Assembly: GCA_951406725.2 (NCBI GenBank)
Contig: OX597821.1
Location: 23,746,001 to 23,810,000 of the forward strand
Direction of reading: 5' to 3'
Source: Octopus vulgaris
Lineage: Eukaryota
Length of the DNA stretch: 64,000 bases
Under the pieces are notes generated by a model. It saw only the letters and a program-made list of their open reading frames with translations, was not told where the DNA came from and made no database searches. Shown piece after piece: positions 5,929-8,840 of this stretch (position 1 is the first letter of the stretch; each line of letters starts with the position of its first letter). Both the position numbers and the translations under genes were made by a program.

Positions 5929-8840
5929 CTTTGGGTAGGGTAGATGAGTTCAGCAAAAATTTAGATTCAGATGTATATGGTACCTAAGTTAAGGCCCCAG
6001 AATTTTGTATGGTATTATCCATACAATTTCAAAGTAAGGTGGTGATTAAAATCAAAATAAGCAACAAGGATATCCAGAGGTAAAGCAGTACGATCGTTTC
6101 ATGCAACTCCATTTAATTGAATAATGCAATCATTACACCAATTTAAAATGCAATTGAGTATATATCAAACTTTTACCACAATAGAAGGGGGAAAAGAAAT
6201 TATCCAGAAATAGTTTAATATTTATAGATACTAACTCATCAGATGGTATCTGGGAATATTGATTAATTGGTATATACTGGTATTAATAAAGGAGTATTGG
6301 GGTAAAGGAATATGCTAATTATATATTAATAAAATTATAATCTAAGCAAATTTTTTATAAGTAGTGAATATACCAGTTTAGTTTTATATAAGCTAAGTAT
6401 GAATTTATAGAGATACAATAATTATATTAATTTTATAAATAAATAAAGGTTAATTATAAAATAATAAAGAAATAAGATAAAATAATCAAGTAGGGAGGAA
6501 CACTATAGAAAAGGAAATAAAATAGCTTAATTACTAATACTATGGTAAAGTATATGTAACTTATTAACACCAATAGAAAAGAGTTTTTGATAAAGTATAA
6601 TAATTCAAATAAATTAGACTAAAAATTATATATTTACTAATAAATCTTAGAGCGAGTTATAAACAGTAGCTGCAACACATCGTGACGTATATTTGTCATT
6701 TAAATATGGCTAACCCCTAAGGGTGGATGCTACTGTAGTTTGTAGCCCCAGGAGGACAGCTCCTCCAGCTGGCTATAGACTCACTTTCTGTTCTCTAGTG
6801 CAAATACTGATAGGGCACAGAAAGTATGTCTATAGCCAGCTGGAGGAGGTGTCCTCCTGGGGCTACAAACTACAGTAGCATCCACCCTTAGGGGTTAGCC
6901 ATATTTAAACGGCAAATATACGTCACGGTATATATTTACTTATTTAGCTAATATCAATAAAAGACTGATGTCTAGTATCAGCTAAAGGAATATTTAAGTT
7001 ATGGAACAATCATATTTTACACTATTTTTTTTTTTAAAGTTTAAGGGTTATATTATAGGTTTAAGAAGTTATTATTGTTACTCCCTCCATGATATTTATA
7101 GTTTCTTAGTGGTACTTGTTTAGAAGGGTTATTTATATAAAGGCCCTTATAAATACTAAGATCAGGAGGGTAGAGCCATTTAAGAAAGAGATAAATCAAG
7201 TAATTTCTAAAGATCATTTCAAATAATATTGTCTTATTGTATAAAGTTAAAATTTAGGGTAATCAAGAAAATTATTAAGAATGAAATTTTAAGAAAAGGA
7301 TAAAACTTCTTTGAATATTTTGAGTATATACCAAACTTTTACCACAACAGAGGGAGGAAGAGAAAATTGCAAAGAAATAGTTTAATATTTATTTACTTAT
7401 TACTTATCTAAATAATTAACTTATTATATGGTTTCTATGGAGATTGATCAATTGGATTTAACTGGTATTAAATAAGGGAGCAACTGAGGTTAAAGAACAT
7501 GTTAACTATATACTGATTTAATTAAATTGAACTATTTTAAGTTGTCGAGATACCGATATTACCTTATATAAGCTGAGTATGAATTAATAGGGGTACAAAG
7601 ATTAGATTTATTTCAGGCTACTATAAAATAATAATAATAATAATAATAATAATAATAATAATAATAATAATAATAATAATAATAATAATAATAATAATTA
7701 TAATAAAATGATCAGTTAGGGTAGGGCATCATAGAAAAGGAATAAAAACAACCTAATCACTAATACCCATAATAAAATATCCATACCTTATTAACTTCAA
7801 TAGCAAGTATTTATAGAAAATGTATGATAATTGAAGTATTATGAGCTAAAAATTGTTAATTAACTTATTTAGCTTATTATAATTAGGACTGAAACTCAGT
7901 ATTGGTTAAAAGAATAATTGTTGTGAAAAAAAGGACATGCTAATTATATACTAATATTAAATTAAGAGGTATAATATAGATATTTTAGAAGTTATTTGTG
8001 TTATCTATAAATGATATTACAGTTTCTTAGGGGTACTTAATTAGAAGGGCTGTTTGTATAAAGCCAGTATAAATACCAAAATTAGGAGGACGGAACACTT
8101 TAAGAAAGGGACAAAAAACTTAACTACTAAAACTATTATAAACAATATGTCATTTTTTTGTATAAAGTTAAAATTTAGGGTTATCAGGAAGATTTATCAT
8201 TGAGGTGAGAGAACAAATTTACTGTAAATTAGTTAAATTATAATTTAGGCAGTTTAATTTTAAGCTGTAAAGATACCCATATTTTTTTTTATAAGCTAAG
8301 TATGGATTTATAGGGGTACAAAAATTTAGGCTTGTCTAAAGGCAATTATAAAGTATTAAAATGATCAGGTAGGGTAGAAACATCATAGAAAAGGATATGA
8401 AATAGCTTAATCACTAGAATCCTGATGAAGTATATATACTAATTTAGTAACTTCAATAGAGAAGATTTATAGAAAATATGTAATAATTCAAGTATTTAAA
8501 ACTAAAAATTGTTTATTTACTGAATTAGCTTGTGTCTATAATCACTGGTACGCAGTATTGACTAAAGGAAAATTAATGCTCTCGGGCATGCTACCTATAC
8601 ACTGATTATAAACAAAGAGGAACATTATAGGTTTTAAAATCCAAGATCAATAAAGTGCTACTTTCTAAAATATTTGAAGGTACGGGTGGCACTGTGTACA
8701 CATGATACCCTAAGATCTATTTGATTATTAATCGGATTGCTATTATCTATCTAATGCTTAAAAATTTCATATGTTTCCATGGAGCAAAGCTCACACCCAT
8801 ATCTGCTATTTACTGCCGTGGAATTTACCTAGAACCATCC
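5929..8840. repeat. AT-rich ~2.9 kb insertion in (TA)n with diverged internal tandem duplications
   Basis: TGAGTATATA.CAAACTTTTACCACAA at ~6155 and ~7321; third partial unit ~8240-8620; (TA)n on both sides. Confidence 0.7.
6681..6927. repeat. Long fold-back (inverted repeat), ~115 bp arms
   Basis: CGTGACGTATATTTG...CAAATATACGTCACG; arms complementary with few mismatches. Confidence 0.95.

Follow-up and report, generated by a model that had tools for sequence, protein, structure and literature searches.

In a 64,000-nt stretch of the Octopus vulgaris genome (assembly GCA_951406725.2, contig OX597821.1, positions 23,746,001 to 23,810,000; hereafter, the window, to which all coordinates refer), we analyzed a fold-back at 6.7 kb and its relatives at 31.7 and 42.1 kb. 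The fold-back is almost certainly the dead remnant of an endonuclease-bearing Penelope-like element (PLE), in which two 5'-truncated 3' ends are joined head-to-head. Its inner stems are probably not a property of the fold-back; they likely represent a structured RNA domain that lies between the hammerhead ribozyme and the first codons of the element and is kept in at least three divergent families. The domain is made up of two hairpins, H1 and the extended H2, and of a long-range helix with its 3' strand in the tail of the element (Table 1).

Anatomy of the 6.7 kb insertion

The inverted repeat that a first-pass annotation had placed at 6681-6927 is present there, and its arms match at 110 of 117 positions across a 13-nt spacer (6681-6797 and 6811-6927). 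Four of the seven mismatches fall within 20 nt of the centre. An inverted, 5'-truncated copy with a tail of 30-40 bp at one end is described for insertions of endonuclease-bearing PLEs (PMC8557442; PMC3846280), and because the 6.7 kb fold-back has these marks we assigned it to this type of insertion, which is already known; the element belongs to an abundant PLE family. The target is AT-rich and its duplication variable, with 12 bp at 6.7 kb and (TA)n on both sides at 42.1 kb; at 31.7 kb the best repeat between the flanks has 6 nt. The insertion sits in an old AT-rich repeat (6120-6620), with a diverged second copy at 7330-7800 recognized by eye.

Related copies of the 6.7 kb family were profiled in contigs from four sequencing runs (four organism labels) aligned to 6590-6832 at 80% likeness. 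The runs were chosen by ranking with the 31.7 kb stretch, and one of them may be the source sample. The aligned contigs numbered 4313, 2135, 3364 and 1371 per run, figures that reflect depth and not copy number. Loose contig ends piled up before 6638 in all four runs (at least 60, 30, 49 and 38 records among the rows listed, with 527 further rows) and before 6682 in three of the four (at least 34, 32 and 36 records among the rows listed, and another 25 at 6679). Beyond both piles the flanks were AT-rich, of low agreement in the consensus and unlike each other. The family therefore ends at two 3' positions separated by about 43 nt. Eight joints, each from one contig, linked places within 6677-6758 to 6799, 6808 or 6810, indicating that other copies fold back at different points. 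One fixed stop site for both inverted arms was rejected: the left arm of the 6.7 kb element reaches 6797, and other copies break elsewhere.

An origin from miniature inverted-repeat DNA transposons (MITEs) or from a hairpin RNA gene, with no tie to retroelements, would fit the long inverted arms and the target duplication, and matches to microRNA precursors were obtained below threshold. MITEs have fixed ends, fixed size and terminal inverted repeats, whereas here the tail is one-sided, the eight inner joints all differ, the 42.1 kb copy stands without an inverted partner, a PLE N-terminus is encoded in the tail and a relative bears a PLE-type hammerhead. The microRNA matches scored 25-48 bits against gathering thresholds of 68-80 and are generic hairpin matches. 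We regard this origin as largely refuted and highly improbable.

The family sequence upstream of the 6.7 kb copy was visible for 30 letters. Upstream of 6799, contigs of all four runs shared one sequence ending in a 6-bp hairpin, which by eye resembles 31890-31912. Within these letters the first half of a hammerhead core was found in one run, a version differing by one letter in another, and the matching second half was not found beside the 6-bp hairpin. In the one run, this half core, with a bulge and a 6-bp stem, lies 41 nt before the GAAA of the H1 loop in a weak consensus; its spacing to the GAAA recalls the 'half core' described in PMC8557442.

Related families and the hammerhead

The arms of the 31.7 kb fold-back differ at 5 positions in 102 nt, and the element lies directly at the TA-rich right end of a mariner remnant (30612-31715; HTH_48, Transposase_1). 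The first-pass annotation had proposed that it is related to the 6.7 kb fold-back, and this was upheld by three comparisons. When the 64-kb window was searched by nhmmer, on sequence alone and with one arm as query, the arms of the other element were recovered at E-values of 1.2e-5 to 2.7e-3. With the two 31.7 kb arms as its only input, a covariance model found both 6.7 kb arms at E 1.1e-5 and 6e-5, with the next hit at E 0.21 (rough E-values). Local alignment of the two elements scored 48, and the maximum of 2000 shuffles was 41. The nhmmer search is the cleaner test of homology, because the structure of the covariance model was supplied after both elements had been seen.

A model built from the 6.7 and 31.7 kb families together returned the 42.1 kb copy as its top non-training hit (E 0.0043; next 0.083), and the model from the 31.7 kb arms alone placed it at E 0.59. 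This third family is represented by one copy without an inverted partner. The Rfam comparison suggested in the first-pass annotation gave no match at the gathering threshold in the window; both loci had sub-threshold hits only. A flank-only pattern with a free stem matched 30 stretches (3 viral, 27 from metagenomes); all lacked both the 6-bp inner stem and the flanking context, and we attribute all of them to chance. In the DNA around related PLE proteins, no locus was found among 600 viral candidates, and two weak Streptomyces matches were found among 115 prokaryote candidates. Neither search yielded a homologous locus beyond the window.

The hammerhead at 31.7 kb was the single hit of two descriptor scans of the window, and it scores below every Rfam threshold. 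The same scans found none in the 6.7 kb copy, which is truncated before that point. H1 starts 60 nt, and the first 3' end lies 178 nt, downstream of the predicted cut at 31.7 kb. The position assigned to the conserved structure by the first-pass annotation, downstream of the hammerhead, thus holds for the 31.7 kb copy and was not seen at 6.7 kb.

Two related small palindromes at 10120-10243 and 52134-52283 have a hammerhead-like centre with a non-standard first core half and share a one-sided extension; they probably represent another PLE family. A fold of 10095-10205 took in both palindrome arms and is uninformative on the tail of that element.

Local stems

The right-arm motifs on which the first-pass annotation was built are present at 6814-6865 and 31930-31983. 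Its first hairpin, H1, stood in part: the 6.7 kb right arm has a C-A mismatch and the left arm only three of the six pairs, while H1 appears whole in related copies of the family, where no variant was listed at the mirror place, 6782. In the second, H2, all 11 pairs form in the 6.7 kb copy, but the outer stem has 5 bp, and its fifth pair is a compensatory change that had been missed.

In a 17-pair register set by hand, 16 pairs form in the 6.7 kb right arm (17 with the left-arm letter), 17 in the 31.7 kb family and 15 in the 42.1 kb family, in agreement with the earlier proposal that the letters of the stems change and the pairing is kept. Three pairs differ at both positions between the 6.7 and 31.7 kb families: outer pair 5 (C-G/U-A), inner pair 1 (G-C/A-U) and inner pair 6 (A-U/C-G; C-U in the 42.1 kb family). 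Random placement of the same number of changes gave three such doubles with P 3e-4 to 2e-3 (6.7 kb rows). At one inner pair G-U recurs, in the 42.1 kb family, in the 31.7 kb right arm and as a variant of 12-34% in the 6.7 kb family, and it can pair on the sense strand only. In a count over the pairs of the model, four double-change pairs were matched by 258 of 500 shuffles and the number of paired cells by 1 of 500; with two lineages and a fitted alignment this count carries little weight.

The isolated cores of 56-61 nt of all three families folded into one shape (z -1.3, -2.7 and -3.6), and in the 42.1 kb module 15 of the 16 pairs tested had pair probabilities of 0.92-1.0. H1 is almost invariant in sequence, with one G-U change and no compensatory change; its loop has 5, 6 or 7 nt in the three families and the stem is kept. 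The smaller hairpins H4 and H5 are common to the 6.7 and 31.7 kb families and absent from the 42.1 kb family. An alternative hairpin, H3, was rejected, since a family variant of 18-32% breaks its pairing.

The reads yielded 32 variant rows, of which 19, unphased and covering 18 sites in 6681-6791, were used; the rows dropped were in the tail (7) or at positions where the 6.7 kb copy has a private letter (6). Five variants fall in H1, H2 or H5: three stay paired as G-U on the sense strand and two come with a partner variant. The reciprocal variant pairs are 6755 with 6762 and 6699 with 6706 (unphased).

A predicted long-range helix between linker and tail

When arm and tail were folded together, the linker 3' of H2 was placed against the tail in the 6.7 and 42.1 kb elements, forming a helix that is absent from the first-pass annotation. 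In one register it has eight of eight pairs in both (one of them G-U at 42.1 kb) and six of eight in the 31.7 kb element, where two further outward pairs were found by eye. Between the 6.7 and 42.1 kb families, 7 of the 16 letters differ and all eight pairs are kept, with three double changes (P 0.001-0.045 for pairs kept, by transition share; P 0.004-0.03 with double changes). Shuffled tails paired equally well within 3 nt of this register in 35, 29 and 306 of 20000 cases for the 6.7, 42.1 and 31.7 kb elements, and anywhere in 175, 168 and 1510. Pairing between linker and tail was better within a family than across families for the 6.7 kb, 42.1 kb and 31.7 kb right-arm linkers, but not for the 31.7 kb left-arm linker. 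Both the start codon and the first 3' end fall inside the loop that the helix closes, and the second 3' end lies about 25 nt beyond the helix. Variable tail positions number 0 of 8 in the helix strand and 6 of 34 elsewhere (P about 0.26, hand arithmetic).

At 31.7 kb, two neighbouring linker bases are not the same in the two arms (31775-31776 vs 31990-31991); each arm keeps the pairing letter at one of them, as if one transition apiece had occurred since insertion. In the fold of the 31.7 kb element the tail pairs strongly with H2 over 11 bp, a pairing that was rejected because it is not common to the families. Duplex energies of the whole tail against the body were equalled by 112-206 of 1000 shuffles.

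Table 1 Coordinates of the elements, RNA features and reading frames discussed in the text
Feature	Position	Strand	Evidence or remark
6.7 kb element: target-site duplication, left copy	6627..6638	+	12 bp, AT-rich; exact repeat of 6929-6940, longest common to both flanks
6.7 kb element: target-site duplication, right copy	6929..6940	+	exact 12-nt match to 6627-6638
6.7 kb element: one-sided 42-nt tail, element sequence past the inverted-repeat end	6639..6680	-	no counterpart at right end
6.7 kb element: left arm, inverted, 5'-truncated copy of element end	6681..6797	-	110/117 vs right arm
6.7 kb element: forward copy, 5'-truncated at 6799	6799..6927	+	5' end 12 nt longer than that of left arm; related contigs continue upstream
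H1, 6 bp, one C-A mismatch (6818/6826) in right arm	6814..6830	+	
H2, extended hairpin: 5-bp outer stem, internal loop, 6-bp inner stem (6842-6857)	6833..6865	+	11/11 paired
Long-range helix, 5' strand (linker)	6872..6879	+	mirror 6729-6736 in tail-bearing arm
Long-range helix, 3' strand, within tail	6663..6670	-	8/8 paired with 6729-6736
Small hairpins H4 and H5, within domain closed by long-range helix; H5 spans start codon position	6884..6913	+	
Start of PLE reading frame, Met + 19 codons (6 in arm, rest in tail)	6640..6699	-	match to PLE N-termini
Second-family fold-back: arms 31718-31819 and 31947-32048; one-sided tail of ~42 nt, 32049 to about 32090	31718..32090	+	
Minimal type-I hammerhead, U3-A8 core variant, palindromic stem III	31834..31876	+	predicted cut after 31870
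H1, H2 and linker strand, second family	31930..31995	+	17/17 paired; linker 6/8 with 32057-32064
Decayed PLE frame (reverse transcriptase, thumb, C-terminal GIY-YIG)	39721..41581	+	GIY-YIG E 1.8e-7 at 41282-41578
Third family, single 5'-truncated copy between (TA)n tracts	42094..42297	+	best non-self alignment in window, 42120-42177
Third family: H1, H2 and long-range helix	42123-42141; 42143-42177; 42182-42189 with 42249-42256	+	15/17 and 8/8 paired

A function of the conserved part as DNA was weighed against the RNA reading: it could be an internal promoter, with a TATA-like box, H1 as a palindromic factor site and an initiator, or an endonuclease site in the pseudo-long terminal repeat (pLTR). 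In the 31.7 and 42.1 kb families a TCA just past H1 is preceded by a TATA-like box at a distance of about 25 nt (31923-31952, 42115-42146), the 31.7 kb left arm terminates at this TCA, and H1 is nearly invariant. Promoters in pLTRs are described (PMC2377424; PMC3846280), and the tail of the Drosophila virilis element is required for endonuclease recognition, as cited in PMC11167929. But no TATA box occupies the corresponding place in the 6.7 kb family, the length of the H1 loop is not fixed (5 to 7 nt), and a duplex site would not explain compensatory changes between strands some 60 nt apart or recurrent G-U. We consider a purely DNA-level function quite improbable.

Evidence against a conserved fold

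Several observations weigh against a selected RNA domain. There are three lineages only, and helices and registers were hand-picked after inspection. Both doubles counted between the 31.7 and 42.1 kb families are the same events as those between 31.7 and 6.7 kb, and the 6.7 to 42.1 kb comparison has none in the local stems. The bare two-hairpin topology is common, with 16 rows in the window, 14 of them unrelated. Folding of the whole regions gave weak z-scores (-0.6 to -2.3); in longer context the 6.7 kb forward copy gave H1 and the outer stem pair probabilities of 0.0-0.16 only, and H2 and the long helix folded better on the 6.7 kb antisense strand than on the sense strand; no consistent sense-strand preference emerged. 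Overall, stems are not spared by family variants (5 of 36 stem positions vs 18 of 111 in all), a frequent family variant disrupts H4, and the P-value for reciprocal pairs rises from 0.013 for four stems to 0.10 once H3 and H4, which three variants break, are added. For the long-range helix, the predicted pair probability was 0.65 at 6.7 kb and 0.95 at 42.1 kb but 0.0 at 31.7 kb, where pair retention did not differ significantly from random substitution (P 0.12-0.55). A variant at 6730 (2-5%) breaks one of its pairs, and the tail strand is also coding, which could explain the constancy of the tail. Moreover, the palindrome family at 10.1 and 52.1 kb did not match the module model, which gave E 2.9 for the 10.1 kb copy and no hit for the one at 52.1 kb.

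The paired changes could be a by-product of quasi-palindrome correction via template switching, with the signal overstated by three hand-picked relatives and without any selected structure. The common topology, the weak z-scores and the frequent variants in H3 and H4 favor such an origin, as does the strand switching demonstrated in these elements by the eight joints. Palindrome correction, however, yields perfect Watson-Crick pairs and not recurrent G-U, and it is less likely across a distance such as the roughly 60 nt of the long helix. Found by sequence alone, the 42.1 kb copy folds the module with high probability in nearly all pairs, and linkers pair best with the tail of their own family, except that of the 31.7 kb left arm. 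On balance we judge a by-product unlikely, and a structured RNA domain shared by the three families remains the probable explanation.

The reading frame and its protein

In the tail-bearing arm of the 6.7 kb element, a frame starting from Met at 6699 is open for 20 codons. Its 9-mer LLFITRSKI ranked 2nd of the 86811 stop-free 9-mers of the window against a block made from six PLE N-termini, and 1st of 13229 when an in-frame Met 2-12 residues upstream was required; 12 of 20000 random 60-nt stretches equalled its score. The six proteins of the block were chosen after the motif had been noticed. In full-length relatives of P0001 the motif lies at about residues 3-19. The tails of the two relatives scored poorly against PLE N-termini (best ranks 303 at 42.1 kb and 1771 at 31.7 kb), and a search of the 42.1 kb copy found no in-frame ATG at the corresponding position. 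In reads of the 6.7 kb family, a variant of 2-8% alters the A of the ATG (6699-6697).

Domains were searched in 72 frames, the longer and more complex among 102 filtered frames. None with reverse transcriptase (RT) or GIY-YIG was found among them next to the 6.7 or 31.7 kb elements. A decayed PLE frame, three segments of which are 43-54% identical to P0001, lies on the same strand as the 42.1 kb copy and stops 513 bp short of it, with microsatellite-rich DNA between; the two could stem from one insertion or from separate ones. Neptune/Nematis-type PLEs are marked by a CX2-5CxxC motif ahead of the C-terminal GIY-YIG domain (PMC8557442). Relatives have near-invariant C753, C758 and C761 (alignment A7), and the decayed frame retains the last of these cysteines only. 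With 68 PLE proteins as tblastn queries against the three modules, no match below E 0.05 was among those listed.

The position of the module just 5' of the start codon, with the ATG inside H5, raises the alternative that the fold serves translation, either by recruiting ribosomes to uncapped, ribozyme-cut RNA or by damping the start codon. The ribozymes of R2 and L1Tc, which resemble that of hepatitis delta virus (HDV), have been proposed to act like internal ribosome entry sites (PMC6765202). Against this, the long-range helix is linked to the two 3' ends by having one strand in the coding tail, the 42.1 kb family lacks H5, and the ATG itself is hit by the variant in one family and was not found in another. 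A role in translation is unlikely.

Proposed role in reverse transcription

We lean towards a cis-acting RNA domain that is bound by the PLE protein and places two internal starts of reverse transcription. This proposal, raised by the first-pass annotation as an RT-recognition signal, fits the position of the domain by analogy with PAc, the Poseidon element of Anolis carolinensis. The PAc protein nicks AT-rich DNA, and RNA +20 to +172, mapped by truncation only, is needed for insertion (PMC11167929). This needed RNA extends from near the ribozyme cut to just past the tail.

The RT-endonuclease protein would bind the domain in the transcript and nick AT-rich DNA, and reverse transcription would then have two internal start sites, the first within the loop that the long-range helix closes and the second about 25 nt beyond the helix. 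The two starts would give one end without a tail and one with it, and early termination of both copies near the module would leave a short fold-back. More tentatively, the families may share an undescribed RNA domain with covarying pairs, formed when the tail folds back onto the 5' untranslated region; the protein would read this domain and start copying on either side of the long helix. In literature covered mostly at the level of titles and abstracts, neither a covarying fold nor a helix involving the tail was found described for PLE ends; subscription papers and repeat libraries may hold one.

If correct, the proposal would explain the one-sided tail of PLE insertions in structural terms and would identify a module by which the nearest relatives of telomerase reverse transcriptase recognize their template. 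How the PLE protein chooses its RNA, why there are two internal starts and why the tail is at one end are open in the field, and the cycle is called undefined in PMC8557442. The fold-back itself is an ordinary PLE leftover, and the interest lies in the fold within it: three natural families with changed letters and kept pairs offer a concrete structure with natural variants for testing.

Other features of the window

The window is rich in repeats and of animal type, with microsatellites, families like short interspersed nuclear elements (SINEs), and remnants of mariner and of long interspersed nuclear elements (LINEs). The closest named protein to any of its frames is a hypothetical protein of Octopus vulgaris (52% identity). 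Three SINE-like families are abundant, one at 1072-1460, 3915-4315, 18800-19205, 53309-53716 and 58240-58633, the others at 33392-33815 and 45553-46276, and at 46486-46833; they resemble octopus SINEs. A frame of 351 codons at 22780-23832 (RVT_1, E 1.6e-25) has no PLE protein match and is probably a LINE fragment. Two elements of 570 bp (37059-37630 and 50592-51163), 96% identical and with terminal inverted repeats of 35-38 nt, are likely internally deleted mariner copies, and DDE_3 transposase fragments lie on the minus strand at 59648-60025 and 63299-63913. A near-perfect 107-nt palindrome (59225-59331) stands beside a (TA)n tract.

Comparison with known systems

Two other kinds of element were considered and set aside. 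Non-LTR retrozymes consist of tandem units each with a hammerhead (bioRxiv 10.64898/2026.07.22.740005), whereas the copies here are single or inverted and the window holds one hammerhead. Naiad PLEs have an N-terminal endonuclease and no canonical hammerhead, whereas the tail peptide matches proteins with a C-terminal endonuclease. Of 12 short probes, 11 had no match in the PMC8557442 supplement; the remaining one, an 8-mer, had five matches there, the two listed lying in AT-rich interior sequence. By eye, a 13-nt string (6898-6910) recurs near the 5' end of Naiad_Omin in that supplement, probably by chance.

Minimal type-I hammerheads of the U3-A8 type are known from metazoan PLEs (PMC4209133), and the motif at 31.8 kb is like them in its U3-A8 core, short stems and palindromic stem III. 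It differs in having a stem II of 4 bp closed by A-U instead of the usual G-C, and no hammerhead was found in the 6.7 and 42.1 kb copies. The 5' regions of R2 and L1Tc likewise combine a ribozyme with an adjacent RNA structure for which protein binding and translation roles are proposed (PMC6765202). These belong to another element class, with an HDV-like ribozyme and priming at the RNA 3' end, so the analogy is functional only.

The insertions described in PMC3846280 and PMC8557442 share with ours the head-to-head arms, the one-sided tail, the target duplication, the AT or (TA)n targets and a pLTR that carries the first codons. The pLTR of the rotifer element Pen2a_Av holds 12 codons, or 22 with the tail (PMC3846280), and that of the 6.7 kb element 6 and 20. 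The described tails have 30-40 nt vs 42 nt here, and both copies here are cut to about 120-230 nt. The passages on PLEs in these two papers describe no conserved fold between ribozyme and start codon.

With PAc there is a parallel in layout. The PAc ribozyme overlaps the start codon, and the RNA required for insertion is coding sequence, whereas here the module is mostly 5' untranslated and the cut lies well before the first end. Cleavage by the PAc ribozyme is dispensable in vitro, copying starts internally in a stem loop, and the PAc tail lies between two start sites (PMC11167929). Both systems thus have two 3' ends that bracket the tail, an AT-rich target, structured RNA 3' of the hammerhead and a first end predicted to lie in a stem loop.

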